Positions 6,553 to 51,640 are shown, numbered from the stretch's first letter. The stretch is DNA of 64,000 bases from Bacillota bacterium (GCA_050952065.1 JBMNKF010000007.1:76412-140411), one strand, 5' to 3'. Numbers and translations are program-made. The notes: generated by a model from the letters alone, not told the origin.

Positions 6553-8097
6553 GTGGGGGAAGGGACTTCACAAGTAATCGTCAGTGAAGCCGTAACGGTG
6601 CCTGAGGAAAAACCCCCGGTTAGGGCGGTCATTGACTTTGTGGCGAGGACTAGGATAGACAAAGTCACGGTGTTGCCCGGCAAGGTGATTGTGGACGGTA
6701 CGGTGGACTTCGCCATCATCTACGAAGCTACTGTGGAGACTCAGACGGTTCACGTGTTTCATGCGGAGGTCAAGTTCAGTACGTTTGTGGAGATCCCAGG
6801 TGTCGAGCCTGGTATGACTGCGACCCCCACGCTTGCCATTGAGCACGCGGTCTTCCAGGTTAGCCCGGATGGAAGAACAATCACCATCCGAGCGGTCGCG
6901 GCCCTCTCGGTAAGAGTGACTCAGTCGGTGGTTATCGACGTCATAACGGACGTTTCGGGCCTGCCCGGACTCCAGGTCACCAAAGAGGTTGTGAAGGCTG
7001 AAACAGTGCTGGGTGAGGGAGAAGCCCAATACGTGGTACGGGAGAACTTGCAGATTCCCGACGCTAAGCCTGACGCGGCGCGAGTGATAGACTTCGTGTC
7101 GACCATACAGGTGAACTCCACCACAGTTCTGCCCAACAAGATAATAATCAACGGCACCATCAGCCTAAGGGTCATCTACGAAGCGGCCGTGCCCAGCCAG
7201 TCGGTTCACGTGGCTCACTTCACCATCCCCTTCGAAGCGTTTGTGGAAGTCCCGGGAGCGCAGCCGGGGATGGCGGTAATCGCGGCGGCTCAGGTTGAGT
7301 TCATCTCTATCGATGTGAATGCTACTGGTCGAGTGCTTCAGGTGAGGATCATTCTTAAGGTTACGGCAAAGGTCATCCGAGTCCAGAAGGTCCAGGTTGT
7401 GACCAACGTAGCCGGTATAGCAGATTTGGTGCTCTGGAAGGAGCTAATCAGGGTCCAAGAGGTCTTGGGTGAAAACAAATCTCAGGGGATCGTTCGAGAG
7501 ATTGTGGACGTTCCTGACGAGAAGCCATCTGTGGCTATGGTGATTGATTCCAGTTCTTCTCCGGAGGTCAAGAGAGTTATCGTGGCCCCAGGGAAAGTCA
7601 TCGTTGATGGCGCCATAGCTCAGAGGATCATCTATGAACCGCTGGATTGCCCGATGCAACAAGTGCATACGCTGCACTTTACGGTTCCTTTCTCCGAGTT
7701 TGTGGTGTTGCCAGAGGCTAAACCCGGCATGGTTGCCAGAGTGGATGTTCAGGTGGAACACGCCAATTTTGAGGTACCGCCTTCGGGAGATCCCGTTATG
7801 GCCACCAAAATCATCCAGCTCGTAGCAAGAGTGTTTAAGACCAGGGTCATCAATGTAGTGGTCAAGATTCAATTAGGCAAACCGAAACCCACCTGTACCG
7901 GTACAGTCACCGGGAACCTGGTTAACGTCAGGCAAGGTCCCGGAACCACCTATGCAGTTGTTGCCCAAGTCAATGCTGGTACGGTGGTCGCGGTACTGGA
8001 GTTCTCGCCCGATTGGGTTAAGGTAAGACTACCCAACGGAGTGGTGGGATGGATTTCCTCCGCATACTTGCGGCATGACTGCAAGCCGTTGGGGTAG
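6553..8097 (+). CDS. Secreted/spore-associated repeat protein: three ~125 aa DUF3794/SipL-like repeats plus C-terminal bacterial SH3 domain
   Basis: Internal repeats (VLGEG-x-Q-x-VV-x-E-x-V-PD-KP...V-x-VLP-KVI-x-G-x-IYEA...VH...F...F-x-FVE-PGA-PGM) recur three times. C-terminus GTVTGNLVNVRQGPGTTYAVVAQVNAGTVVAVLE...WVKVRLPNGVVGWISSAYL is SH3b-like. The true start is probably upstream of 6553 (see findings). Confidence 0.7.
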   Translation: MGEGTSQVIVSEAVTVPEEKPPVRAVIDFVARTRIDKVTVLPGKVIVDGTVDFAIIYEATVETQTVHVFHAEVKFSTFVEIPGVEPGMTATPTLAIEHAVFQVSPDGRTITIRAVAALSVRVTQSVVIDVITDVSGLPGLQVTKEVVKAETVLGEGEAQYVVRENLQIPDAKPDAARVIDFVSTIQVNSTTVLPNKIIINGTISLRVIYEAAVPSQSVHVAHFTIPFEAFVEVPGAQPGMAVIAAAQVEFISIDVNATGRVLQVRIILKVTAKVIRVQKVQVVTNVAGIADLVLWKELIRVQEVLGENKSQGIVREIVDVPDEKPSVAMVIDSSSSPEVKRVIVAPGKVIVDGAIAQRIIYEPLDCPMQQVHTLHFTVPFSEFVVLPEAKPGMVARVDVQVEHANFEVPPSGDPVMATKIIQLVARVFKTRVINVVVKIQLGKPKPTCTGTVTGNLVNVRQGPGTTYAVVAQVNAGTVVAVLEFSPDWVKVRLPNGVVGWISSAYLRHDCKPLG

Positions 8098-12051: not shown

Positions 12052-12894
12052 GTGAAAAGCGTTAGAAGCGTGAAGAGCATCATCCCTCTATTCTTTGCTG
12101 GGCCAGTCATCTTGGCCCTGCTGATGTCCGGGTGCCTGCCCAGAGCGTCGGGAGATCCCAGTGACTCAATACCGCCTGTACCATCAAAAAGTTATGCGGA
12201 CCTGGTGCTCTTTTTTGGCGATGACCAGGCCATGGAAGTGTTGCCTGAGTACAGGCGCGTGGAGATTCCCAGTGACCCTTCACAGCGCGAGTCCGAGGCT
12301 GTCTTGGCAGTGAAGGAACTCTTATCGGGTCCCAAGGACGCCTTGTTGAGGAAGACTCTTCCGCCCGAAGCCAGACTACTCTCTCTAGAAGTGACCGACG
12401 GCGTTGCCCTGGTCAGCTTCAGTAAGGAGATTCAGACGAAGCATTGGGGTGGGTCCGCAGGGGAAACCATGACAGTGGATTCTCTGGTGCTCACTCTAAC
12501 GGGCATCGAAGGTATAGAGAAAGTTCAGATATTGGTGGAAGGCAAGACCATAGACACGATCGCAGGGCATCTGGATGTTTCAAGGCCATTCTCCCGACAG
12601 ATACGTTTGGGCCCCTTCTTTACCAGTGATTATCGGGCTGAGGAACTGCAGAAGCGGGTGGGTGGGGGTCAAGATGCTTGGCGCAAGGATTTTCTCGAAG
12701 TGGCCAACCGCGAATCCCAATCTCGAGGGCTAAGCCCGGACCTAACGTACAATCCTGTGTCCAGTGGGCAAGGAAAAGCCACCGTGGAAGCCGTGGGCGA
12801 AGATGGGGGCAAGGACTACCAGATCAACCTCGTTCAGCCCCAAAAGCAGGGCGAAGACGGAGTCTGGGTTATTTCGGAGATTAGGGAGAAGTAG
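12052..12894 (+). CDS. Lipoprotein with GerMN (germination/sporulation GerM-like) domain
   Basis: Lipobox LLMSGC, followed by sequence resembling the GerMN domain (VLFFGD...EVLPEYRRVEIP..., VKELLSGP..., LSLEVTDGVALVSFSKE...). Confidence 0.6.
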   Translation: MKSVRSVKSIIPLFFAGPVILALLMSGCLPRASGDPSDSIPPVPSKSYADLVLFFGDDQAMEVLPEYRRVEIPSDPSQRESEAVLAVKELLSGPKDALLRKTLPPEARLLSLEVTDGVALVSFSKEIQTKHWGGSAGETMTVDSLVLTLTGIEGIEKVQILVEGKTIDTIAGHLDVSRPFSRQIRLGPFFTSDYRAEELQKRVGGGQDAWRKDFLEVANRESQSRGLSPDLTYNPVSSGQGKATVEAVGEDGGKDYQINLVQPQKQGEDGVWVISEIREK

Positions 12895-17959: not shown

Positions 17960-18178
17960 GAGGTGAAGCGAGGCACGGCGTCTCGGCTAGCTCGGCCCTT
18001 CCCTTCTTGGTTGCACATGCCTCTAGCAGCGCTTCGACCGACTTCACCCCTGCGGTGTTACGGCCGGTTGTAAAATCCGCCATTAGGGCCGGATGAAAAA
18101 TCCCCCACCCCCTCGAAGAAGCACTCCGTAACGAGCCAAGTTTCGGAGGTGCGATTCTTGCTAGGAGGCGGGGAAACT

Positions 18179-19384
18179 TTGGATATCAAACTCATGCGCA
18201 GCCAAGGACTCAGCATCAGGGAGATCTCTAGGCGGACCGGCAGAGACCGGAAGACCATCGCCAAGTATCTCCAGTGCCAAGAACTGCCCAAGTACAAACC
18301 CAGGCCACCGCGGCCGTCCAAACTGGATCCCTACAAAGACTACCTTAGAGCCAGGATGGCCGAGGGCGTGTTCAACGCCAACCGCCTGTTTAACGAGATC
18401 AAGTCTCTCGGGTACTCCGGCGGTAAGACAATTCTCAAAGACTTCCTAAAACCCTTCCGTCCTTTGCAAAAAGCCCAGGCTGTCTCACGGTTTGAGACCA
18501 AGCCCGGGGAGCAAGCCCAAGTAGACTTCGGTGTGTTCAAGTACGAAGAACAGGGCCGTGAGCGGAAGATCTACGCCTTTATCATGGTGATGAGTTACTC
18601 GAGGGCGATGTATGTGGAGTTTGTGGACAGGCAGGACACAGCTACACTGATACGGTGCCACATCCATGCCTTCGAGTACTTCGGAGGGGTGCCTGAACAC
18701 ATCCTGTACGACAACCTCAAGCCGGTAGTGCTTGGACGGGATGAAGGTGGTCAACCGGTGTGGAACCAGAGGTTTCTAGACTTTGCCCTGGTAGCCGGCT
18801 TCTACCCTAAAGCCTGCCGGCCTTACAGGGCCCAGACCAAAGGCCGGGTCGAAAGAGCGATCCGTTACCTCAGGCAGAGTTTCTGGCCGGGGCTTAGGTT
18901 TTTCGGCCTGGAAGACTTGAACGCTCAAGTTAGGGCATGGTGTGATGCCGTTGCAAACAAGAGAGTCCACGGTACTACTCAGAAGAGACCTTGCGACCTC
19001 TTGGCTGAGGAAAACCTTCATGCCTTGCCAGATAGGGCAGCGTTGGTGGTTTTTCTCGCTGAGGAGCGCAAGGTCAGTCGGGACGGGTTCGTGAGTTTCG
19101 GCGGAAGCAGGTACGGAGTGCCTTGGGCTTTCGCTGGGAAGACGGTGGAAGTCAGGGAGAACGGCTACCACGTTGAGGTGTACTCGGGAGGGGCAAGAGT
19201 GGCTGTCCACCCCAAGGCGCTGGTACCGGGGACCGTTGTGCCCCTAGCAGGCCAGTGGGACGGCGTACCTCTCGGTACCGACCGAAAGCCAAGACAAGTG
19301 TTGGCCACACGAGTAGAGAGCCCCGAGGTTGAAGTGAGGCCTCTCAGAACCTACGAAGTCTTGGCGGAGGTGAGCAGCACGTGA
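18179..19384 (+). CDS. istA: IS21 transposase IstA (HTH + DDE integrase core)
   Basis: N-terminal HTH (RSQGLSIREISRRTGRDRKTIAKYL), DDE-type core (QVDFG...YDNLK...), typical approx 400 aa size. TTG 18179 lies 10 nt after AGGAGG; the ORF-track start at GTG 18149 is also possible. Confidence 0.85.
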   Translation: MDIKLMRSQGLSIREISRRTGRDRKTIAKYLQCQELPKYKPRPPRPSKLDPYKDYLRARMAEGVFNANRLFNEIKSLGYSGGKTILKDFLKPFRPLQKAQAVSRFETKPGEQAQVDFGVFKYEEQGRERKIYAFIMVMSYSRAMYVEFVDRQDTATLIRCHIHAFEYFGGVPEHILYDNLKPVVLGRDEGGQPVWNQRFLDFALVAGFYPKACRPYRAQTKGRVERAIRYLRQSFWPGLRFFGLEDLNAQVRAWCDAVANKRVHGTTQKRPCDLLAEENLHALPDRAALVVFLAEERKVSRDGFVSFGGSRYGVPWAFAGKTVEVRENGYHVEVYSGGARVAVHPKALVPGTVVPLAGQWDGVPLGTDRKPRQVLATRVESPEVEVRPLRTYEVLAEVSST

Positions 19385-20214
19385 TAGCCGTCGAAAAAGC
19401 CCGCCAGCAACTACTTGATTTAGGTCTAAGCCAGGCCGCGAGCATCTTGGACAGCAGGTTGGAAGCTGCCTCTCAGAAAGACCTCACATACGCGGACTTC
19501 CTGACTGACCTTCTTGACACCGAACTGGCTGCTCGAAGAGAGAGGTACATAACAGCGAGAACCAGGCTAGCCCACCTGCCCTTTCACAAAACGCTGGACC
19601 AATTCGATTTCTCCTTCCAGCCCTCCATCGACGAGAGGCAGGTGAGGGAACTCGCGACACTCACCTTTGTGCAGGAAGCGTCCAACATCATTCTGCTGGG
19701 ACCTCCCGGGGTTGGGAAAACCCATTTGGCAGTCGCTCTAGGCATCGAGGCCATCCGACAAGGAGTCGGTGTGTACTTCGTCACTGCTCACACTTTAGTG
19801 GAAGACCTGAAGAGAGCTTACGCCGACAACAGGCTCGACAGGAGGATGAGAGTCTACATCGCGCCCAAAGTGCTGATCATTGACGAGGTAGGTTACCGGC
19901 CCTTCGATTCTGTGGGCGCAGCCATGCTCTTTCAGCTGGTGTCTGCCAGGTACGAACGCGGGGCGATTATCTTGACCTCAAACAAAGGGTTTGGAGAGTG
20001 GGGTGAGATATTCGGAGACACAGTAGTGGCCACAGCGATCCTGGACCGCCTGCTTCATCACTCCCACATCATCAACATCCGAGGCGAGAGTTGGCGGCTC
20101 AGGGAGAAGAAGCGAGCCGGTCTGTTCGGAACCACCTATTCACGACCGGCCGTGAAGTCTGGGGTGGGGGAAAATTCAACCGGCCAAAGTGGAGGAATTT
20201 TCGACCGGCCTTGA
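19381..20214 (+). CDS. istB: IS21 helper ATPase IstB
   Basis: Walker A GPPGVGKTHLAVALG, Walker B VLIIDEVGY, IstB-typical C-terminus. Start overlaps the istA stop (GTGA). Confidence 0.9.
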   Translation: MIAVEKARQQLLDLGLSQAASILDSRLEAASQKDLTYADFLTDLLDTELAARRERYITARTRLAHLPFHKTLDQFDFSFQPSIDERQVRELATLTFVQEASNIILLGPPGVGKTHLAVALGIEAIRQGVGVYFVTAHTLVEDLKRAYADNRLDRRMRVYIAPKVLIIDEVGYRPFDSVGAAMLFQLVSARYERGAIILTSNKGFGEWGEIFGDTVVATAILDRLLHHSHIINIRGESWRLREKKRAGLFGTTYSRPAVKSGVGENSTGQSGGIFDRP

Positions 20215-24031: not shown

Positions 24032-24973
24032 CTACTTGGGTGCGAAAGACTCGTTGTTGACAGTACGACCCTTGTCTCCCCGATAGGGGGTAGGGACGTA
24101 CTGAACAGATGGTCTTGTCTGGGCAGGCTGCGGGTACAGGTCCATCAGTTCGAACACTTCCCTAGGCATTTCCTTACAAATGGGCGGGAACCCCAGTTTG
24201 CTCAGCTCCTCGCAAGTGAGGGGGTAATCGTGGGTCCAAACGCCCGAAGTGAGTTTTGTTGCCAGTCTCCTTGCGTCCTCAGCGTCCATTCTCTGGCTAA
24301 GCATGTCGGTTACTGTCTGGGCTACCTGTCTCACAGCCTTTTCAGCCATATCTGCCAGGATAATTGTCTCGTCATCAATGTCTTTCGGGTCTTTCTGTCT
24401 CAGAACCCTCAAGATAGACGATGCGGCATACTTACCTACCTGCGGGTCTACCGGTCCAAGGACTGCATTGGGATCCATGACTATCTCGTCTGCTGACAAG
24501 GCTATAAGCGACCCGCCTGACATCGCATAGTGGGGGACGAACACGGTTACCTTGGCCTTATGGCGGAGGAGAGCCCGTGCGATCTGCTCCGATGCAAGTA
24601 CCAGTCCGCCGGGTGTATGCAAGATGATGTCGATGGGCATGTCATCGGGCGTGAGCCTGATGGCGCGGAGCACTTGTTCAGAGTCTTCGATGCTAATGTA
24701 GCGAGTAAGCTGCACTCCAAGAAAGTTGACGGATTCCTGGCGGTGTATAAGAGTGATCAGACGAGATTTACGCTTCCTTTCGAAGGCCCTGATCAGGTTA
24801 ACCCTGGAAGAATCCAGAAACCTTTTCTGGAGTGCCGGAACGAACATAGAAATCAGGAATAGGCTCCAGATGATGGTGGATAGGTCCAGTTTGATTCCCT
24901 CCTCTGGAAGAAGTCTGTCTGGTATTGGCCAATAACATGTCCCGGTCGGCACATCTATTGTATATTGATTCAT
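24032..24973 (-). CDS. ClpP-class serine protease of the SDH ('serine dehydrogenase proteinase') family, membrane-anchored
   Basis: N-terminal TM segment, then LITLIHRQESVNF...IDIILHTPGGLVLASEQIARAL...YAMSGGSLIALSADEIVMDPNAVLGPVDP (ClpP/crotonase-fold Ser-protease signature). Confidence 0.6.
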   Translation of the reverse strand: MNQYTIDVPTGTCYWPIPDRLLPEEGIKLDLSTIIWSLFLISMFVPALQKRFLDSSRVNLIRAFERKRKSRLITLIHRQESVNFLGVQLTRYISIEDSEQVLRAIRLTPDDMPIDIILHTPGGLVLASEQIARALLRHKAKVTVFVPHYAMSGGSLIALSADEIVMDPNAVLGPVDPQVGKYAASSILRVLRQKDPKDIDDETIILADMAEKAVRQVAQTVTDMLSQRMDAEDARRLATKLTSGVWTHDYPLTCEELSKLGFPPICKEMPREVFELMDLYPQPAQTRPSVQYVPTPYRGDKGRTVNNESFAPK

Positions 24974-26277
24974 CGCGCCACAAAGAGAAACCCTAATACC
25001 ACAAACATGATCCGTAAGATGTTGCCGGTTAGTCTCCCAAGTTTCATCCTCTTGGCCTTGACAAATAGATCAAACGCAAAAAGGCCACAGGACAGCACGT
25101 AGAATACCAGAACAAAAAGCCATTTGCTGGCCATTAACCATCCGGTCAAAACGGTTGCAGCGGCGTAAAGGAGGCACCCCCAAAAGACGTAGCTCATAGC
25201 GATATGGTGGTCTCCGACAGGCAGAAACAGACCCTTTCGGCGCTTTTCCAGCAAAGTGCCAAGCTGTCGTTTCAGCATTTCGCCAATGTTTGCATACGCG
25301 GTCATGATGAGAATGACGCTGATAGGGGCCGCTGTCGCTGGATCTCCAATGAAAGGTATTTCAGCGAACACAGGTGTTCGGAAGACCAGTACGCCCAAAA
25401 GCTGCAACCCAAAAAGGACAATCCAAATCTGTCCGCCCGCCCTAATGGTTTCTATGGCCCCTTTAAGAAAGATGGCGTTTTCTCTCTTGAGGGGGAGATT
25501 ATGTAGGAGAAGACTGCGCTTCCGATTGGCGTTATGTTCGGCGGTTATTCGGATCATCTGCGCTATGTCAAAACGGCTTGCCGCCGCTGTGGTTTCGTCT
25601 ATCAGAGCCATGTCTCGGCTGTACCTCAAGAGATTGAGATCGTGTATCCCTACAAAGATTGAATGTGTCGCCCACAATAAAGCGCTCCAGACGAGAACGT
25701 GGCGTACGGCCTGGGTTTTTGCCAATATGCCCATTGAAGACAGGATGTAGCCTGCACCTGTTACAAAACTCGCGTTTCCAATGCGATGATAGTTTATCCA
25801 CGACAACGTGCTGCCTGAGAACATGTATCCTCCAAGTAGCAACGCGTTCAGCAAAGTCAAACCGGAGTATCGAAACCCATCCATCAATCCCGATAGAAGC
25901 AAGGCCGTTAGAAGGCTTTTCACCAAAACCCATGCATACTCAGCTATTAGGATTTTGTTGAAGTGAGATGTGCCGCGCAGATAATGAACAGTCGCGGCGT
26001 TTACCGCTATTGCGGGCGTCCTTGTGATGAACACACGATAGCCGTTGAGGATGACGCAAGCCAAGAGCACGTAGCAGACGGATTTGGGCCCTAGAGTGAT
26101 GCCGATCCCGCCGCCCAGGACCGCGACTAGGAACCGATAGCCGAGGTAGGCAAAGCCCAATGACATCCCAAGAAACGAAGGCCAGTAATGCTTAAGCATG
26201 TTCTTTGTCGTTCGGAGTCTATGCCTGATAATTGCGCCATACACTGCGGTATTCACGACGGGCCTCCCACGAGCCAC
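24970..26277 (-). CDS. ecsB: ABC-transporter membrane component, EcsB-like (multi-TM, approx 435 aa)
   Basis: About 8 hydrophobic helices and no ATPase motifs. 4-nt overlap with the downstream protease gene and 25-nt overlap with the upstream ABC ATPase. Size and context fit EcsB. Name is inferred. Confidence 0.45.
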   Translation of the reverse strand: MARGRPVVNTAVYGAIIRHRLRTTKNMLKHYWPSFLGMSLGFAYLGYRFLVAVLGGGIGITLGPKSVCYVLLACVILNGYRVFITRTPAIAVNAATVHYLRGTSHFNKILIAEYAWVLVKSLLTALLLSGLMDGFRYSGLTLLNALLLGGYMFSGSTLSWINYHRIGNASFVTGAGYILSSMGILAKTQAVRHVLVWSALLWATHSIFVGIHDLNLLRYSRDMALIDETTAAASRFDIAQMIRITAEHNANRKRSLLLHNLPLKRENAIFLKGAIETIRAGGQIWIVLFGLQLLGVLVFRTPVFAEIPFIGDPATAAPISVILIMTAYANIGEMLKRQLGTLLEKRRKGLFLPVGDHHIAMSYVFWGCLLYAAATVLTGWLMASKWLFVLVFYVLSCGLFAFDLFVKAKRMKLGRLTGNILRIMFVVLGFLFVAR

Positions 26278-34234: not shown

Positions 34235-36259
34235 GTGGATACCATGGATTCTGTGGTGAATCGGGCGCTCCGCAAAGTCCCGCCTTCCGTGGGTGTGGCG
34301 AGAATCCTAAGTGTTGTCGTTGGGGCACTCGTGCTATGGGCCGTGTATGCCGAACACTCCTACGTAGAAGAACGGCAGATCCTTGACGCTCTAAGAACCG
34401 TCGGAGTTCTAGCGTGGCCTGCGGTTCTTGCCCCATGGCTGGGAGAGAGGTTTACTCTGGGTGTCCGATTCGTTCTAGGGCTACTGGGGATCGTGGCGGG
34501 TTATTGGTTCACGGGCCAGCCGTTGCTTATCTTCACCTATTATACAACGCTTTCCAACGTAAAGTTGTTGCCCTATCTGGGAGGGGCAGCAATCGTTCTA
34601 CTAGTCTTGTTGGCTATGGCGCCACAGCCCAAGGCCTTTTCGACAAGAACTCCTCGTGTCGCTTCTCGTATCGCAGTGTGGCTTCCCTGTGTTGTCCTGT
34701 CCGCCTCTCTTGGATGGACGCTGAGCATCCTGACGCCTGTCATGGGTTTTGCCAGAGTGAAGCCGGGCGAAGTGGCCCTTTCCACACTTATGGTGGTGGA
34801 GACTTACCTCATGGAAGCCCCGGATAACACGGATCTCGTAGGTTACGCTACGGACGAGGTAATCGTTGTTTGCAGCGCCAACGAAGCGCTCATTCGTTTG
34901 CCTGACGGGACTGCCAAGGTTGTTGACTTGAGCCTCAACCTTGAAGCGCTGGAGATCGTTGAAGTCGGTAGTCAAGTCTTCATCCTCGACAAAGAGGCCG
35001 GTGAGTTGCACTGCTTTGATTCGGGGACCGGTGATCGACTGTGGACTGCGGTCGACCTGGGAACGGTACATCAGGTCAGATGGTCTCTTGACGGCTGGTT
35101 CCTCAATTACCCTGAAGAAAGTGATTTCGACCCAGCGGTCGGTGAGGTATCCCTGACCAAGGTGGACCTATTGTCTGGAACCTCAATGACTTGGGCTCTG
35201 ACGCCTCCAGACAACTGGTTTTGGCCGGAGGCGACGGAGTCCCACCTTGGCGATTGGTTTGGTGCGGAACTGGGGCTTTCTGGCGATCAGGCATTTGTGC
35301 GAATGGGACTTCGATCTGACGCTCATTCCGAAGTCTCCAAGTATAGCATGTTCCTGGCCCTGCCATCAGAAGACCTCGGCCGTTCGTGGTCTTTGGTGCA
35401 GCTACCCGGAAGTCGCTCGAGCACCGAACTCATGGGCGTAGCCAAGGCAATGGCAGTCTACTTGAGTTACCGCGATGATGGGTTGTGGCTTGTTGCTCGG
35501 GATATAGCCAGCGGAATAGAGGTGTGGAATATCCACATCGGGGCCGGTAGTCATAGGGCTAAGCCCCTGAAGGTGCTTCCAGACAGAATTCTGTTGGACT
35601 GGGACAGTCTCGACACTCCTATTGAAACCGGTTTGGCATGCCTAGATCCAGTTACCGGCCGCGAAATGTGGCGATACCGTGAATCAGAGCGCTGGATTCG
35701 CTCTATGGTGTCGGTGGGGGCAAACACGGTCATACTTGCCCAAGACTATGTTTTCTCTGAAGACCCACGAGATACTCTGATCTTTCTGGACGCGGATGGG
35801 AAGCCCGTGTGGTCTTATGAGTTCAAGAACTTGGCACATATAGTGGAGATTGACGCCGAGAAAGACCGCATCAGACTTCTAGAAGGGGTCGATTCCCAAC
35901 TATCGACATGGTCCGGTATGTGGGGAACCGAGACCGTGCTTAGCCTCTCGAACGGGCAACCGATAACGCTGCCGGATGAGGGGCCACGTGGGAAATCGGG
36001 CGATGGATTCGGTCGAGAAGATCTAGGGAACTACCGGTATCTTGTCATCGACAATGCGCTTTATCGAACAAGGGAAAAGATTACCGGGGACTATGCCAGG
36101 TACCGACCGGTGATGAGGCTGGAAGGGAGAGGCGTAGGCATTCGTGATCTGGTGCGTGGCACCGACAGTGTTCTAGCCCGGCCTGACATGGTCGTTGTCG
36201 CGTGCAGGGTTGCCTCGGGTGTGAAGGTGTCTTTGCTGAAACCAGTGTCTCCCAAGTAA
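34235..36259 (+). CDS. Membrane-anchored PQQ-like beta-propeller repeat protein
   Basis: About 5 N-terminal TM helices, then repeated motifs of the PQQ/BamB-like propeller type (TGDRLWTAVDLG, SGIEVWNIHIG, DPVTGREMWRY, DADGKPVWSYEF). Confidence 0.55.
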   Translation: MDTMDSVVNRALRKVPPSVGVARILSVVVGALVLWAVYAEHSYVEERQILDALRTVGVLAWPAVLAPWLGERFTLGVRFVLGLLGIVAGYWFTGQPLLIFTYYTTLSNVKLLPYLGGAAIVLLVLLAMAPQPKAFSTRTPRVASRIAVWLPCVVLSASLGWTLSILTPVMGFARVKPGEVALSTLMVVETYLMEAPDNTDLVGYATDEVIVVCSANEALIRLPDGTAKVVDLSLNLEALEIVEVGSQVFILDKEAGELHCFDSGTGDRLWTAVDLGTVHQVRWSLDGWFLNYPEESDFDPAVGEVSLTKVDLLSGTSMTWALTPPDNWFWPEATESHLGDWFGAELGLSGDQAFVRMGLRSDAHSEVSKYSMFLALPSEDLGRSWSLVQLPGSRSSTELMGVAKAMAVYLSYRDDGLWLVARDIASGIEVWNIHIGAGSHRAKPLKVLPDRILLDWDSLDTPIETGLACLDPVTGREMWRYRESERWIRSMVSVGANTVILAQDYVFSEDPRDTLIFLDADGKPVWSYEFKNLAHIVEIDAEKDRIRLLEGVDSQLSTWSGMWGTETVLSLSNGQPITLPDEGPRGKSGDGFGREDLGNYRYLVIDNALYRTREKITGDYARYRPVMRLEGRGVGIRDLVRGTDSVLARPDMVVVACRVASGVKVSLLKPVSPK

Positions 36260-36485
36260 TCTGTCAAGTAGTCTGTCCAATAGTCTGTGACCCCATCCAG
36301 GCATGGCGGGACTATTCATCAAACGTTTGAGCGCAGTCTTCACGGAGACTGCCCAGTGGAACTGGAGGTGGTCGGGGAATCGCGTCAATACCGATCATCA
36401 AAACAGACCATGTTGAGATCGCATCGTAATGATAGCATGGTGGTTGGCTGAGAATCGAGAATCTAGGATTGGTAGAGGGTAAAGC

Positions 36486-37799
36486 ATGGCCAGACGAGGT
36501 GGTTCCGGGGGAAGGAGCAGTGGCGGCTCTTTTGGAGGGAGTCGCAGCAGCGGCGGGAGGAGCGGCGGTTCCTTCGGTGGAGGCAGGAGCGGTGGCTTTG
36601 GCGGAAAGCCGCCCGGTAGATCGGGCGGTTCAGGTGGTGGCATTTTCGGCGGCGGCGTTTTTGGCGGAGGCAGGAGCGGTGGTTCGGGCGGCGGCGTTTT
36701 CGGCGGAGGTGGAGCCACCAGGCCGGGTGGAGGTTGGTTCGTCCCCAGAAGGCCGCCGGTGGTTCTCGTACCTACTCCCATATCTGGGAGGCCTGAACAG
36801 CCTCAATCCCAGGGGATGGCGCAAGAACGAAATATGAATTCAGGCGGTCGCGGAGGCTCTGTGCATCGATCAACCCCAGGAAATACCGGGAAGGCAAGGT
36901 CAGGCGCAGGTTGCGGAACGGTCTTGCTCGTCCTTGCGATCCTCGTTATCTTGGGCGTAGTCGTGAGCGCCGTAATGGGGCAGGGGTTCTTTTTCAGAGG
37001 GTACAGGAGCGACAGGGGGATTACGTGGTCCACTATACAACGTAAGCCTCTCCCGGCGGGTTCGGTCAACGAAACCGAATACTACACCGACACTCTCGGT
37101 TGGATCGGCAACCGGACCCAGATGTTGTCAGGGCTCAAGCATTTTTACAAGAAGACCGGGGTGCAGCCGCATGTCTACATTACGGATAAGGTTAGCGGGC
37201 TCTACAGCCCCACGGCGGATGATCTGGATGAGTTCGCCAACGGTCTTTACGATGAGTTGTTTACCGATGAGGCGCATCTATTGTTGGTGTTTTTCGAGTA
37301 CGGTGACGGACGATATCAGACTCGATATGTCTGCGGTACACAAGCCAAGACGGTGATCGATCAAGAGGCGGCAGACATTCTCCTTGATTATCTTGACAGA
37401 TACTACTACGATAAGAGCCTCACCGACGAACAGTTTTTCAGCGTGTCTTTCGCCGATGCGGCGGATCGCATAATGACTGTTACTCGGTCGCCATGGATTC
37501 CGGTTCTTGTGTGGATTAGTATCGCCACGGTGGTAATAGTGGTGTTTGTCTGGTGGAGGCAGGCTAAAGACCGGAAGATGTTGGAGGCTCAGAAGACAGA
37601 GGAAATCCTAAAGACCCCGCTAGAGCGGTTCGGTACCACCGAAGCGGAGCAACTTGCCAAGAAATACGAGAGTCTCGATGCCAAGGGTGGTGCAAAACCC
37701 GATCCTAAATCAGAGATGGCAGAGATCGAAGAGCCCAAGATAGATTCTGATCCCGGTCAAGAGGAACTGGATCCGAGCAAGAGGGGTCCCAGTTTGTGA
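36486..37799 (+). CDS. Bitopic membrane protein: N-terminal Gly/Arg/Ser-rich (RGG/FGG) low-complexity region, TM, TPM-like domain, second TM, acidic C-tail
   Basis: GGRSGGSFGGG-type repeats in residues 1-100. TM (VLLVLAILVILGVVVSAV). Domain KKTGVQPHVYITD...LDEFANGLYDELF...HLLLVFFEYGDGRYQTRYVCGTQAKTVIDQEAADILLDYL resembles the TPM (TLP18.3/Psb32/MOLO-1) fold. Second TM (WIPVLVWISIATVVIVVFVWW). Confidence 0.5.
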   Translation: MARRGGSGGRSSGGSFGGSRSSGGRSGGSFGGGRSGGFGGKPPGRSGGSGGGIFGGGVFGGGRSGGSGGGVFGGGGATRPGGGWFVPRRPPVVLVPTPISGRPEQPQSQGMAQERNMNSGGRGGSVHRSTPGNTGKARSGAGCGTVLLVLAILVILGVVVSAVMGQGFFFRGYRSDRGITWSTIQRKPLPAGSVNETEYYTDTLGWIGNRTQMLSGLKHFYKKTGVQPHVYITDKVSGLYSPTADDLDEFANGLYDELFTDEAHLLLVFFEYGDGRYQTRYVCGTQAKTVIDQEAADILLDYLDRYYYDKSLTDEQFFSVSFADAADRIMTVTRSPWIPVLVWISIATVVIVVFVWWRQAKDRKMLEAQKTEEILKTPLERFGTTEAEQLAKKYESLDAKGGAKPDPKSEMAEIEEPKIDSDPGQEELDPSKRGPSL

Positions 37800-37842
37800 A
37801 ATTGAATGCCACAAGAAGCGAAACATGTGAGGAGGAGAACGC

Positions 37843-38538
37843 ATGGGAATCCTAGATAGATTCAGTGACATCATCAAGGCCAATATCAATGCTGTGCTCG
37901 ACAAGCTTGAAGACCCATCGAAGATGATCGATCAGTATCTGGTCCAGATGTCCGAGGACCTGGCCGAGGTCAAGCGCAGTACCGCGGGGGTCATGGCCGA
38001 GGAAGCGCGCACCAAACGCTTGGTGGATGCCAACCAAGCAGAGGTAGCCAAGTATGAGGCTTTTGCTAAGAAGGCTCTCGCCGCAGGTAACGAAGGCGAT
38101 GCTCGGGTTTTCATCGCAAAGAAACAGGAATTGGAGAACGTAGGAGCAGGTCTGATGACGGCCTATGCCGCAGCCCACGAGAACGCAGTGAAAATGCGGC
38201 AGATGCACGACAAGTTGGTTGCCGACATCGAGGCTCTTAAGGCCCGCCGAGAGATGATCAAGGCCAAAATAGCCGTGGCCAAGACTCAGCAGACCATTAG
38301 CGACATCGGTGCTGCCGCGGCTAAGGCTCAGGGTACCATGGGCGCCTTCACGCGAATGGAGGAGAAAGCCGCAAGGATGCTCGATCAGGCCAACGCCATG
38401 GCAGAACTCAACGCCGAACCCGTGGACGCCGCTAAGGCATTGGAGGAGAAGTACTCCGGGAGGGACTCGGCTTCTGTGGACGAAGAGATTGACAGGCTTA
38501 AGGCAGAAATGGGTCTTCTGGAGAAGAAACCCGAGTAG
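37843..38538 (+). CDS. pspA: PspA/IM30 family protein (phage-shock protein A / LiaH / Vipp1-like)
   Basis: 231 aa all-helical protein. MGILDRFSDIIKANINAVLDKLEDP...IDQYLVQM..., long coiled-coil characteristic of PspA/IM30. GGAGGAG RBS. Confidence 0.85.
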   Translation: MGILDRFSDIIKANINAVLDKLEDPSKMIDQYLVQMSEDLAEVKRSTAGVMAEEARTKRLVDANQAEVAKYEAFAKKALAAGNEGDARVFIAKKQELENVGAGLMTAYAAAHENAVKMRQMHDKLVADIEALKARREMIKAKIAVAKTQQTISDIGAAAAKAQGTMGAFTRMEEKAARMLDQANAMAELNAEPVDAAKALEEKYSGRDSASVDEEIDRLKAEMGLLEKKPE

Positions 38539-38567
38539 CATTGTAGGTAGCACGCGTAGAGTGAAGA

Positions 38568-38605
38568 CCTCCCCGGGCCTTGCGACCATCCGGGGAGGTT
38601 TTTTG
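38568..38605 (+). terminator. Rho-independent terminator after pspA
   Basis: CCTCCCCGG...CCGGGGAGG hairpin followed by TTTTTTG. Confidence 0.65.
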
Positions 38606-39958: not shown

Positions 39959-40723
39959 CTACTGCTGCGGCAGACTCTTTTCTATTAGTCGCATGCTTGC
40001 CCGGTACTTGGCCGATTCCTGCTCAAGGCATTGGATGTATGGGTCTTTGGGGTTGATAGGGCGTCTAGGCAAGTCTTTGGGTATCTTGTTGGACATTCCT
40101 CTGAGAGACAGATCTCGCCATGTGATGGTCACGAGTTCGATGTCGTTCCAATGGCTCATCCCGAGTTTGGCCCAATCGCGTAGTCTCTGTTCTTTGGCTT
40201 GCTTCGGATCTGGGTATTTATAAGTGGGGCCGAAATGTTGCAGTCCCTGATTCTCAAAGGCTTTTCTGTATCGCGGGTAGAATCGATCATATTCCATGGG
40301 CTGGCCAGTGACTGGATTCGTGAGCAGACTCGGCCTTGCGTGGTCGACATAGTCCAGGCATGGTATCAGCTCATCCAGCCAACTAAATGAGAGGAATTCG
40401 CCAATGAACGGCTTCATGGGCAAGACTTGTTTGAACCAGCAAGCTTTGCGTTTTCGCACTTCAGGTGGCTCGGTGGGACAGAGTCGCCTTCCTTCTGTAT
40501 AGACAACCCATCCTGCGTCTTTAAGGGCTCTGACGTGAATGGATACCGTCTCTCTATGCGCATGCAGTAGTTCACCTAGTTCAGAGATTGACAAGTTTGG
40601 CCTAACAAGAATCGCCATGTAGATTGCTTTGGCAGTCAATCTCAGTTTGGGTTCAAGGACGATGTCCGGATAAAGGATGGTAGATTGTGTCTGTACCCAT
40701 TCGGACTCAGTTTTCATAGACAT
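39959..40723 (-). CDS. Hypothetical winged-HTH protein with uncharacterised C-terminal domain
   Basis: N-terminal MarR/Lrp-like wHTH (LSISELGELLHAHRETVSIHVRALKDAGWV). C-terminal approx 150 aa with no recognised motifs. Confidence 0.45.
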   Translation of the reverse strand: MSMKTESEWVQTQSTILYPDIVLEPKLRLTAKAIYMAILVRPNLSISELGELLHAHRETVSIHVRALKDAGWVVYTEGRRLCPTEPPEVRKRKACWFKQVLPMKPFIGEFLSFSWLDELIPCLDYVDHARPSLLTNPVTGQPMEYDRFYPRYRKAFENQGLQHFGPTYKYPDPKQAKEQRLRDWAKLGMSHWNDIELVTITWRDLSLRGMSNKIPKDLPRRPINPKDPYIQCLEQESAKYRASMRLIEKSLPQQ

Positions 40724-50647: not shown

Positions 50648-51640
50648 GTGACGATGATTCCCCTTTGTAAAGATAACCCACATGTTTGCCTGGAATTTCC
50701 CTCAAAACGGCCAACACATACTACTTTCGGAGGTGCGACCCGACTGCAAACCTTTTCCGTAGCATCCGGCAAAGCCCTGGACTCAATAAGGCACCTCGTG
50801 AATCAAGAGATACAGTTGTGGGAGACCCGCGGGGTAAAGATAGGTGTTACCGAGAATCGAGCAGGCGATTTGCTGGTCTTGCGCTGTGAAGTGCCCAAGG
50901 TCAGAGAGTGGGAAGCCCACGAAATTCTCAAAACCATCAAGGCGTCTATCGCAAATGGCTTGTCCCACGTCATCATAGACGAGTACGAGAAACTCCTGGT
51001 TGGGCGAATCATCGACGACAACTATGCATATTTGTCTGACCTCGATCGAGCGATCCTTAAGCGTAAAGTGTCTTCAAAGCTCTCGGGTCAAGACAGCCCT
51101 TCGCCATCCCAAAGGCACGATGGGGAAAGCCAGAGAAAGAGCAGAGTCTGGGCCAAACTAGCCGAATACTTGGAAAGGGAAGACGAGATAGTTGTTGAGG
51201 GATTCATCACTTTTCGCTTGAAAGAGTACCTGGAGAGTCTTTTCGATACTGTGGAGGATGTAGTCGAAGACTATCTCACAGAGCGTGAATACCGGGAATT
51301 CCTGAGGCTTCTACGGCATTTTATGTCAAGGCAGAAGAACCCCATCCGGTCAGTCAACGTGGTGCGCATAGAAGACCAGTATCGGTTGCTTGATGACAGG
51401 CAAGAATCTGTGAAAGGTGATGTGGCTAGATTCTTGCAGAAGCCTCCAAGGGGCATGGACTTGAGCCTAGATGATCTGATAGTAAGCGCAGTGGTGACTT
51501 TGGCGCCTGAGACCGTCATCTGGCACGGGGATATCGGCGGTTCGCCGTGCCATGATCTGCTTCGCGATCTATTTCTTGATCACTTTTTGATTTGTCAAGG
51601 ATGCCATCTGGAGGCCAAAGACCCGGTTCAAGAAGAGTAG
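50648..51640 (+). CDS. ytxC: YtxC-like sporulation protein (start uncertain)
   Basis: Sequence resembles the YtxC family and sits immediately upstream of thrS, as ytxC does in Bacillus. The N-terminal approx 60 aa of the ORF-track model may be spurious. Confidence 0.5.
   Translation: MTMIPLCKDNPHVCLEFPSKRPTHTTFGGATRLQTFSVASGKALDSIRHLVNQEIQLWETRGVKIGVTENRAGDLLVLRCEVPKVREWEAHEILKTIKASIANGLSHVIIDEYEKLLVGRIIDDNYAYLSDLDRAILKRKVSSKLSGQDSPSPSQRHDGESQRKSRVWAKLAEYLEREDEIVVEGFITFRLKEYLESLFDTVEDVVEDYLTEREYREFLRLLRHFMSRQKNPIRSVNVVRIEDQYRLLDDRQESVKGDVARFLQKPPRGMDLSLDDLIVSAVVTLAPETVIWHGDIGGSPCHDLLRDLFLDHFLICQGCHLEAKDPVQEE

Follow-up and report, generated by a model that had tools for sequence, protein, structure and literature searches.

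Which neighbouring genes belong with pspA was the question raised by one locus of a Bacillota bacterium (GCA_050952065.1 JBMNKF010000007.1:76412-140411). The locus lies in a stretch of 64,000 nucleotides (nt), given as one strand, 5' to 3', that is referred to below as the window. Here, a PspA/IM30 gene was preceded by two open reading frames (ORFs), ORF1 and ORF2, both predicted to encode membrane proteins. The original prediction, made by a model from the sequence alone, suggested that all three may make up a distinct envelope-stress module with ORF1 and ORF2 as candidate partners of PspA. The three same-strand ORFs that it described were indeed present in the sequence, but only two of them formed a unit. 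ORF2 and pspA appeared to constitute a self-contained bicistronic operon, judging from their linkage, their spacing, a promoter-like element and a terminator, and no other gene was conserved together with them.

The linkage was assessed from both sides. On the ORF2 side, an alignment of the family was searched against one genome per species (GTDB), which gave relatives in 153 species, and 80 loci were examined. The pspA gene was located directly downstream on the same strand in 79 of them, and the only exception was at a contig edge. On the PspA side, we took 80 loci of the window PspA clade from an independent metagenome collection, 10 of which had too little upstream sequence. Among the 70 assessable loci, the TPM partner (the ORF2-type gene) was directly upstream in 68, directly downstream in one, and rearranged in one where it was still adjacent, so that adjacency was found in 70/70. 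The proposed co-conservation with pspA therefore held for ORF2. The gap between the two genes had a median of 30 nt, with 69 of 71 measured gaps falling within 13-81 nt. Clustering of the ORFs within 6 kb in 80 loci revealed no third co-conserved gene, and the next real family occurred in 14/80 loci at mixed positions. The pair was found in Clostridia, Carnobacteriaceae (Trichococcus, Desemzia, Alkalibacterium and others), Amphibacillus, Cryosericum/Caldiserica and Kosmotogaceae, and the genes flanking it were unrelated between these hosts. Among the cultured hosts of the module were Trichococcus, Desemzia, Alkalibacterium, Amphibacillus and Sedimentibacter saalensis. Moreover, the pairwise distances of the ORF2-type proteins correlated with those of the PspA proteins (r = 0.77, Mantel p <= 0.001).

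The arrangement of expression signals was consistent with this two-gene unit. The short spacings reported earlier were confirmed for the 43-nt gap between ORF2 and pspA, which contained a strong ribosome binding site for pspA (GGAGGAG) after the ORF2 stop codon. They were not confirmed for the gap between ORF1 and ORF2, which was 226 nt long and carried a promoter-like element. Since this element resembled an extended -10 sequence (36430..36438, Table 1), ORF2 and pspA were likely to have their own promoter inside the gap, although a generic sigma-70 scan made no call at this position. The window and two relatives (L007 and L012) had the motif CGTAnTGATAGCATGGTG in common, and the closest relatives of the window also carried TGATAGCAT at the corresponding position. 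Other lineages were enriched upstream of the pair for AAATTGACA (about -69) and TG(A/C)TAGATT (about -46), and the promoter 8-mers were present in 10/31 non-redundant upstream regions, compared with a maximum of 5 in shuffled sequences. Conservation extended beyond the hexamers, since AAATTGACA-N17-TAGATTG could be recognized at about -70 to -40 in a number of upstream regions (L036, L056, L060, L062, L070, L075, L020, L029 and L085). Several lineages also had an ATTGAC/ATTGNN direct repeat, one copy at the -35 position and one just after the -10. The promoter sequence was similar in Carnobacteriaceae and Cryosericum, and such likeness between lineages could mean either that the operon was transferred together with its promoter or that the sequence is a binding site for a regulator.

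From its sequence, the shared promoter upstream of the pair looked like a sigma-A (housekeeping) type. We also considered an extracytoplasmic-function sigma factor for the CGTA-containing upstream motif of the window, but its spacing to any -35-like element was poor, and a putative extended -10 sigma-A promoter was preferred. A riboswitch or leader RNA in the spacer between ORF1 and ORF2 was rejected because Rfam gave no match at E <= 1 in the 226 nt and folding was no better than in shuffled sequences (z -0.44). The gap between ORF1 and ORF2 contained no predicted terminator. On the other hand, the strong terminator reported downstream of pspA was real according to its stem, folding energy and U-tract (Table 1). 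Terminator-like hairpins were located 3' of pspA in 32/74 related loci and in 4-8 of 74-79 control loci.

As for ORF1, its description as a protein with five transmembrane (TM) helices and a PQQ-like propeller was accurate. It matched Pfam PQQ_2 (42.6 bits, cut-off 27.6) at residues 467-535 only. An AlphaFold2 model of low confidence, built from three sequences with a mean predicted local distance difference test (pLDDT) value of 52, had about five helices at its N-terminus and an all-beta region after them. The model matched BamB, tetrathionate hydrolase, NirF and other propellers with a probability of 1.0 but low TM-scores. The likeness to BamB and PQQ_2 propellers thus consisted of the PQQ_2 match and the propeller-class fold, whereas the N-terminal block of about five TM helices set ORF1 apart, and it scored far below the cut-off of the BamB equivalog TIGR03300 (15.9 vs 285.2 bits) and also below that of the PQQ dehydrogenase family PF01011 (13.2 vs 26.7). 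Members of the Bacillota typically have no outer membrane, and a BamB role was therefore implausible for ORF1. Only three clusters of ORF1 homologues were found in 5.8 billion proteins, namely its own (100%), one at 58% and one at 44% identity. In the 58% relative (L007), the ORF1 homologue and the ORF2-pspA pair were about 5.8 kb apart, with three genes in between. In the 44% relative (L087), it adjoined an unrelated protein without similarity to any window protein tested. Among the 80 pair-bearing loci, 79 had no ORF1 homologue and one had it at a non-adjacent position. The suggested partnership of ORF1 with PspA was not supported by this distribution, and we judged ORF1, from its sequence relatives, to be a lineage-restricted polytopic neighbour outside the module.

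The core of ORF2 was supported as a divergent TPM domain, both by sequence profiles and by the predicted fold. The AlphaFold2 model had pLDDT values above 90 for residues 180-336, which formed elements in the order beta-alpha-beta-alpha-beta-beta-alpha-alpha between two long helices. The top five Foldseek matches in the PDB (2KW7, 7TBR, 2KPT, 5ANP and 2LT2) were all TPM domains, with probabilities of 0.91-1.00 and target TM-scores of 0.50-0.64, while the next matches had probabilities of at most 0.23. A search of the PDB by sequence only, using the family profile, gave nothing but low-complexity noise. The window protein itself matched Pfam TPM_phosphatase (PF04536) below the threshold (16.6 bits, cut-off 22.1, E 0.008), as did most members of the family. 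However, this Pfam family matched 29/46 members at E <0.1 (best 5.6e-06) and was the only one that recurred meaningfully; some relatives (P0180, P0181 and P0185) had a precomputed PF04536 match. Therefore, the assignment was based on the family-wide matches and the predicted fold rather than on the score of the window protein, and the TPM-like fold proposed earlier for ORF2 was recovered. The core contained invariant acidic, histidine and aromatic residues, for example E196, D202, D261-E262-A263-H264, D292 and E294.

Outside the domain, ORF2 had an RGG/FGG-rich low-complexity head and an acidic tail, as had been noticed previously. The head (residues 1-141) consisted of 37% glycine, 14% serine and 11% arginine, had a net charge of +16, and contained six FGG, four RSGG and two RGG motifs. 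Its pLDDT was below 50 except for values of about 70 at residues 21-30. Across the family, the heads had a median length of 96 amino acids (aa) and a median net charge of +12, and they started with MGRSGGSGGRSSGGSFGGSRSSGGRSGGSF in the alignment, the common N-terminal motif being MxRxGGSGGRSSGGSFGGSRSSGGRSGGSF. We also noticed that the conserved SSGGRSG motif at residues 21-27 (window 36546-36566) was modelled as a beta-strand with a pLDDT of about 70 within the otherwise disordered head. A Gly-Cys motif preceded the first TM helix (window 36909-36914), with G142 invariant and C143 nearly invariant, and the sequence was often GCGC or GCGT; at the predicted cytoplasmic start of this helix, it was not in a lipobox position. 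The second TM helix was framed by an SPW...WW pattern in which S335, P336, W337, W356 and W357 were invariant in the family alignment. It was followed by a conserved tail (KTEEILKTPLEKFGDTEAEELAKKYE in the alignment), and the model placed helices at residues 337-376 and 379-399. The segment after the second TM helix (residues 361-437) had a net charge of -5, compared with a family median of -4.

Because the head was cationic, a Lys/Arg-rich stretch followed the second TM helix and the domain between the helices had a net charge of -8, the positive-inside rule suggested that both the head and the tail would be cytoplasmic and the TPM domain would be outside. Conservation, expressed as the mean majority fraction, was highest in the TPM domain (0.79) and nearly equal in the tail motif (0.78) and in the first 35 residues of the head (0.72), while it was 0.33 in the remaining head and 0.14 in the acidic end. 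The head and tail motifs were thus conserved as strongly as the TPM core, which suggested cytoplasmic partners, and the tail motif can be considered a candidate docking site with a putative role in binding. A resemblance of the ORF2 tail (TEAEELAKKYE) to the C-terminus of PspA (DEAKALEEKYA) was rejected as mimicry since hhalign of the two alignments gave a 6-column match with a probability of 1% (0.1% for a reversed control).

The layout of ORF2 was shared with a large family. A search with its core, leaving out the low-complexity head, found 852 homologues. Among the 120 matches listed of these 852, identity was 53-95% and mostly 55-70%, the named organisms were Clostridia, Trichococcus and Cryosericum, and almost all of the proteins were without a precomputed Pfam domain, a few being named 'TPM domain-containing' by UniRef. 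When 1.84 billion cluster representatives were scanned exhaustively with HMMER, 1,174 clusters reached E <=1e-3 and 345 of them E <=1e-30, which puts the family at no fewer than 1,174 clusters (50% identity). According to the alignment, the full architecture, with a Gly/Ser/Arg head, a TM helix, the TPM domain, a second TM helix, the PLExFG..KY tail and a variable acidic end, was a family-wide trait. Thus, the architecture that had been taken as unusual was not a local oddity, and the relatives of ORF2 represented a large uncharacterised family without a name of its own.

Relatives at 28-33% identity also retained every part of the architecture, among them the R/G/S head and the PLExFG..L.xKY tail. 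A human-gut branch in this identity class was surrounded by GGDEF/EAL genes and had no pspA nearby. In a second distant branch, the gene was monocistronic and divergent from ispF, and pspA was not adjacent. Since both branches lacked a neighbouring pspA, the ORF2-type protein was likely to have a role for which a neighbouring pspA is not strictly required. Tight coupling to pspA was a property of the clade of the window and not of the whole ORF2 family. Another relative (P0192, L175:3116-6814), 28.5% identical to the window ORF2, had pspA directly upstream and two unannotated genes (293 and 256 aa) downstream. The pspA-first order in this locus and in L163 may represent a transition towards the ydj-type order described below.

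Two apparent peculiarities of the distant relatives turned out to be artefacts of annotation. Gene callers split three gut-branch genes (L169:3741-4744, L171:3723-4762 and L173:3708-4723) into a spurious ORF of 85-97 aa and a core of about 250 aa. A frameshift was rejected here because the spurious ORF read the G-rich head in an alternate frame, the true frame being continuous. Short database entries (P0003, P0012, P0138 and P0161) were affected as well, and wrong start calls were the reason why some family entries lacked the Gly/Arg-rich head. In addition, a 23.7-kb record named 'UNVERIFIED: Bacteriophage sp.' (MT835703.1, L168) contained GGDEF/EAL genes together with a gene of the TPM family. 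Its gene neighbourhood was that of two gut-branch contigs (L169 and L170, 183 and 225 kb) with glutamine synthetase and diaminopimelate epimerase genes, and the record was probably bacterial rather than viral. Carriage by mobile elements was therefore rejected, since there were no plasmid matches and the only 'phage' record shared its neighbourhood with contigs bearing bacterial housekeeping genes.

The partner protein was assigned to the PspA/IM30 (ESCRT-III-like) family by its profile match. Residues 2-222 aligned with positions 1-217 of the 220 positions of Pfam PspA_IM30 (PF04012; 135.9 bits, cut-off 33.9), the N-terminus MGILDRFSDIIKANINAVLDKLEDP aligning from profile position 1. However, it fell below the cut-offs of the NCBIfam equivalog models for E. 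coli-type PspA and B. subtilis LiaH (89.4 vs 242.95 for TIGR02977, 64.5 vs 336 for NF007974 and 48.3 vs 380 for NF045984), which placed it by sequence in a clade apart from these equivalogs. The partner PspAs were 61-91% identical to the window PspA, with a median of 71%, and on these grounds the clade appeared to be tight and dedicated to the TPM partner.

A partnership between PspA and a TPM protein is already known from B. subtilis, and the original prediction was correct in recalling that TPM membrane proteins occur in PspA neighbourhoods of Firmicutes of the ydjF-ydjGHI type (PMC11237479; PMC8581546). YdjH has been termed 'the conserved partner of PspA' (Ravi et al., PMC11237479). Scholz et al. 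(2021) reported that YdjH interacts with PspA in a two-hybrid assay and with YdjI, that YdjG and YdjH are needed for membrane foci of PspA, and that recruitment of PspA also requires YdjG and the SPFH protein YdjI (PMC8581546). In a 2026 preprint, ydjGHI was renamed samGHI, SamG-SamH was described as a membrane stress sensor, and SamI was found to restrain SamG-SamH signalling (bioRxiv 10.64898/2026.02.06.704340). In the literature searched, we found no further paper linking a 'TPM domain-containing protein' with phage shock protein.

The pspA-ydjGHI operon and the window pair both occur in Firmicute hosts, with pspA tightly linked to the gene of a TPM membrane protein and with a low-complexity Gly-rich segment. 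On the other hand, the B. subtilis operon has four genes and the window module has two, and the gene order is reversed, with pspA first in B. subtilis and the TPM gene upstream of pspA here. YdjH consists of a signal sequence, the TPM domain and a TM helix, plus a low-complexity tail, whereas ORF2 has a low-complexity head, TM, TPM, TM and a helical tail (compared by architecture). Moreover, the promoter here looked sigma-A-like and not sigma-W-like, and the domain of most ORF2-family members was below the Pfam TPM threshold. A YdjG-like gene (zinc-ribbon and TM) or a YdjI-like gene (SPFH/Band-7) was not co-conserved in the 80 loci, and the window genes that were scanned contained none either. 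The two-gene pair is a stripped-down variant with another order and another architecture.

Psp and Lia systems combine a PspA-family gene with a neighbouring gene for a small integral membrane protein, which serves the PspA polymer as an anchor or a sensor. PspB/PspC of E. coli and LiaI of B. subtilis follow the same logic as ORF2 in being membrane partners encoded beside a PspA-family gene, but they have no sequence or fold relationship to it. The TPM fold, in turn, is common to ORF2 and E. coli YgcG/COG1512, plant TLP18.3, cyanobacterial Psb32, Bizionia BA41/BA42 and mycobacterial AscF/AscG. In E. coli YgcG, the TPM domain is likewise combined with a TM region and with a tail rich in Gly and Ser (GGFSGGGGSSGGGGASGRW), and the K-12 gene (L176:3558-4584) was 13 nt downstream of yqcG, annotated as 'cell envelope stress response protein', a further instance of a TPM gene beside one for envelope stress. 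With YgcG, a Gly-rich cytoplasmic segment emerges as a recurrent accessory of TPM membrane proteins; hhalign of the ORF2-family profile against the single YgcG sequence was uninformative. TPM proteins are often assembly or adapter factors for membrane complexes (PMC11237479; PMC13456599). Compared with the canonical ones, ORF2 has its Gly-rich segment at the N-terminus, where it is rich in Arg and includes a conserved motif, its TPM domain is enclosed by two TM helices, the PLExFG..KY tail is added, and the partner is PspA and not a photosystem or respiratory complex.

Taken together, ORF2 probably, though far from surely, serves its cognate PspA as a dedicated anchor or sensor in the membrane, the two genes forming an operon that functions in membrane maintenance or envelope stress. 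ORF2 would be a bitopic membrane protein with its head and helical tail in the cytoplasm and its TPM domain on the outer face. Outside, the TPM domain would sense the condition of the envelope or act on it; inside, the head, the tail or both would recruit the ESCRT-III-like PspA polymer to that site or nucleate it there. The contact between ORF2 and PspA and the direction of signalling were inferred from the YdjH precedent, because an anchor role has been shown experimentally for this TPM protein in B. subtilis (PMC8581546). Three observations weighed against such a role. The head and the PLExFG..KY tail were kept in branches without pspA, so these motifs cannot serve PspA binding alone unless PspA is encoded elsewhere in those genomes. 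YdjG and YdjI are needed for recruitment of PspA in B. subtilis, yet no such gene was seen beside the pair. Finally, the promoter was of the housekeeping sigma-A-like kind with no obvious stress-sigma type, and stress induction was not evident from the sequence. A more far-reaching and rather doubtful possibility is that the ORF2 family provides a single-polypeptide sensor-nucleator replacing the three B. subtilis accessory proteins, where the TPM domain would sense outside and the head and tail would nucleate or concentrate the PspA polymer, in a multivalent or condensate-like manner, at the damaged membrane. If so, two genes would make a minimal bacterial membrane-repair machine, apparently spread across phyla by horizontal transfer.

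Several other explanations were weighed against the anchor or sensor role. The outward TPM domain may be an enzyme (a phosphatase or nucleotidase) or an envelope assembly chaperone, with PspA co-expressed for membrane protection and no direct contact between the two. We regarded this as unlikely. In its favour, TPM domains have been reported as phosphatases, as an ATPase/ADPase and as assembly or adapter factors (PMC13456599; PMC11237479), with activities that differ among proteins and are absent in some (PMC13456599), the TPM core contained many invariant acidic, histidine and aromatic residues, and the relatives of the same architecture without an adjacent pspA pointed to a PspA-independent function. 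However, the almost complete adjacency seen from both sides, at gaps of about 30 nt, exceeded what is usual for mere co-expression, the equally strong conservation of the head and tail motifs suggested cytoplasmic partners, and YdjH binds PspA directly in the two-hybrid assay (PMC8581546). A contact of the opposite sign was considered still less probable. Here, ORF2 would be a negative regulator whose cationic head and acidic tail hold PspA inactive and tethered to the membrane until envelope damage releases it. Partner switching is common in Psp systems, with SamI restraining SamG-SamH as an example (bioRxiv 10.64898/2026.02.06.704340), the charges of the head (+16) and the tail (-5) might form an electrostatic switch, and a housekeeping-type promoter would fit constitutive co-expression with post-translational control. 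Nevertheless, this case was purely inferential, and an activating anchor fitted the linkage evidence equally well.

The two remaining explanations concerned the extent and the meaning of the gene cluster. The three-gene envelope-stress module of the original prediction, with both ORF1 and ORF2 as PspA partners, became highly improbable. ORF1 shared the strand, was separated from ORF2 by no predicted terminator, and occurred in the same ORF1-ORF2-pspA order in near-identical metagenome contigs (L001, L003, L005 and L006). On the other hand, it belonged to three clusters only, was away from the pair in L007, had an unrelated neighbour in L087 and was absent from 79/80 loci, and the promoter-like element for ORF2 was inside the 226-nt gap. 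Inherited synteny without functional meaning was hardly credible as the cause of the adjacency of ORF2 and pspA. Many of the loci came from related Bacillota, but the flanks were unconserved while the pair was kept in 79/80 loci and in several phyla, the reverse sample gave 70/70, and the gaps were operon-like.

Recruitment of PspA and other ESCRT-III-like proteins to bacterial membrane sites is understood in only a few model systems (PspBC, LiaI and YdjGHI). In this context, a large unnamed membrane protein family accompanied a tight PspA clade as its obligate genomic partner in many anaerobic Clostridia, Carnobacteriaceae and a few other phyla. With two genes against the four of the Bacillus operon, the module would lend itself more readily to reconstitution, and it has definable elements, namely the head motif, the TPM core and the tail motif. 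For annotation, the propeller gene should be kept apart from the module, and it should be considered that Gly-rich heads are often lost through wrong start calls. Moreover, the sister branches without pspA in cyclic di-GMP or isoprenoid neighbourhoods suggested a broader membrane-protein role that PspA plugs into.

Table 1. Coordinates of the genes, ORF2 segments and expression signals at the locus (window positions)
Feature	Position	Strand	Remarks
ORF1, as GTG ORF	34235-36259	+	674 aa; same strand as ORF2 and pspA
ORF1, by gene callers and NCBI record	34244..36259	+	ATG start; 671 aa
Promoter-like extended -10 element TGATAGCAT	36430..36438	+	48-56 nt upstream of ORF2 start; putative function
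ORF2	36486-37799	+	437 aa; TPM-type membrane protein
ORF2 residues 1-141	36486..36908	+	Gly/Ser/Arg-rich disordered head, predicted cytoplasmic
ORF2 residues 142-166	36909..36983	+	TM helix 1; AlphaFold2 helix 143-166
ORF2 residues 180-336	37023..37493	+	divergent TPM domain, predicted extracytoplasmic
ORF2 residues 337-360	37494..37565	+	TM helix 2; AlphaFold2 helix from residue 337
ORF2 residues 361-395	37566..37670	+	conserved helical tail motif KxLEAxKTEEILKTPLExFGxTEAEELAKKYE, predicted cytoplasmic
ORF2 residues 396-437 and stop codon	37671..37799	+	variable acidic disordered tail, pLDDT ~50
pspA	37843-38538	+	231 aa; Pfam PF04012
Intrinsic terminator	38563..38605	+	15-bp stem at 38563-38603, -24.7 kcal/mol, z -3.4, U-tract

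The remaining genes of the window indicated the core chromosome of a spore-forming member of the Bacillota, since there were sporulation genes for SipL (6553-8097), a Germane-domain protein (12052-12894) and a YtxC-like protein (50648-51640) as well as thrS-infC and pheST. The NCBI record of ORF1 was titled 'MAG: ... [Bacillota bacterium]', MAG standing for metagenome-assembled genome. None of the genes for PspB, PspC, PspF, LiaF or Toastrack proteins was found among the window genes scanned. A role of the locus in defence was rejected because PADLOC gave no meaningful match, only weak coiled-coil noise of PspA to Cas6 models. An IS21-family insertion sequence was located at 18149-20214 and encoded an IstA-like transposase (rve and Mu-transposase C-terminal domain) and an IstB-like ATPase. 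On the minus strand, a gene at 24032-26277 encoded a ClpP-like SDH-type protease with an NfeD1b N-terminal domain and was preceded by a 435-aa ORF without a Pfam match and by an ATP-binding cassette (ABC) ATPase gene. SPFH/stomatin genes are the usual company of NfeD proteins, and no SPFH gene was seen there. Downstream of pspA was a major facilitator superfamily (MFS) gene that was kept only in the closest relatives (L007, L009 and L013). Convergent to this gene, the minus strand at 39959-40723 encoded a 254-aa protein with weak winged-helix (MarR/Crp-like) matches only.

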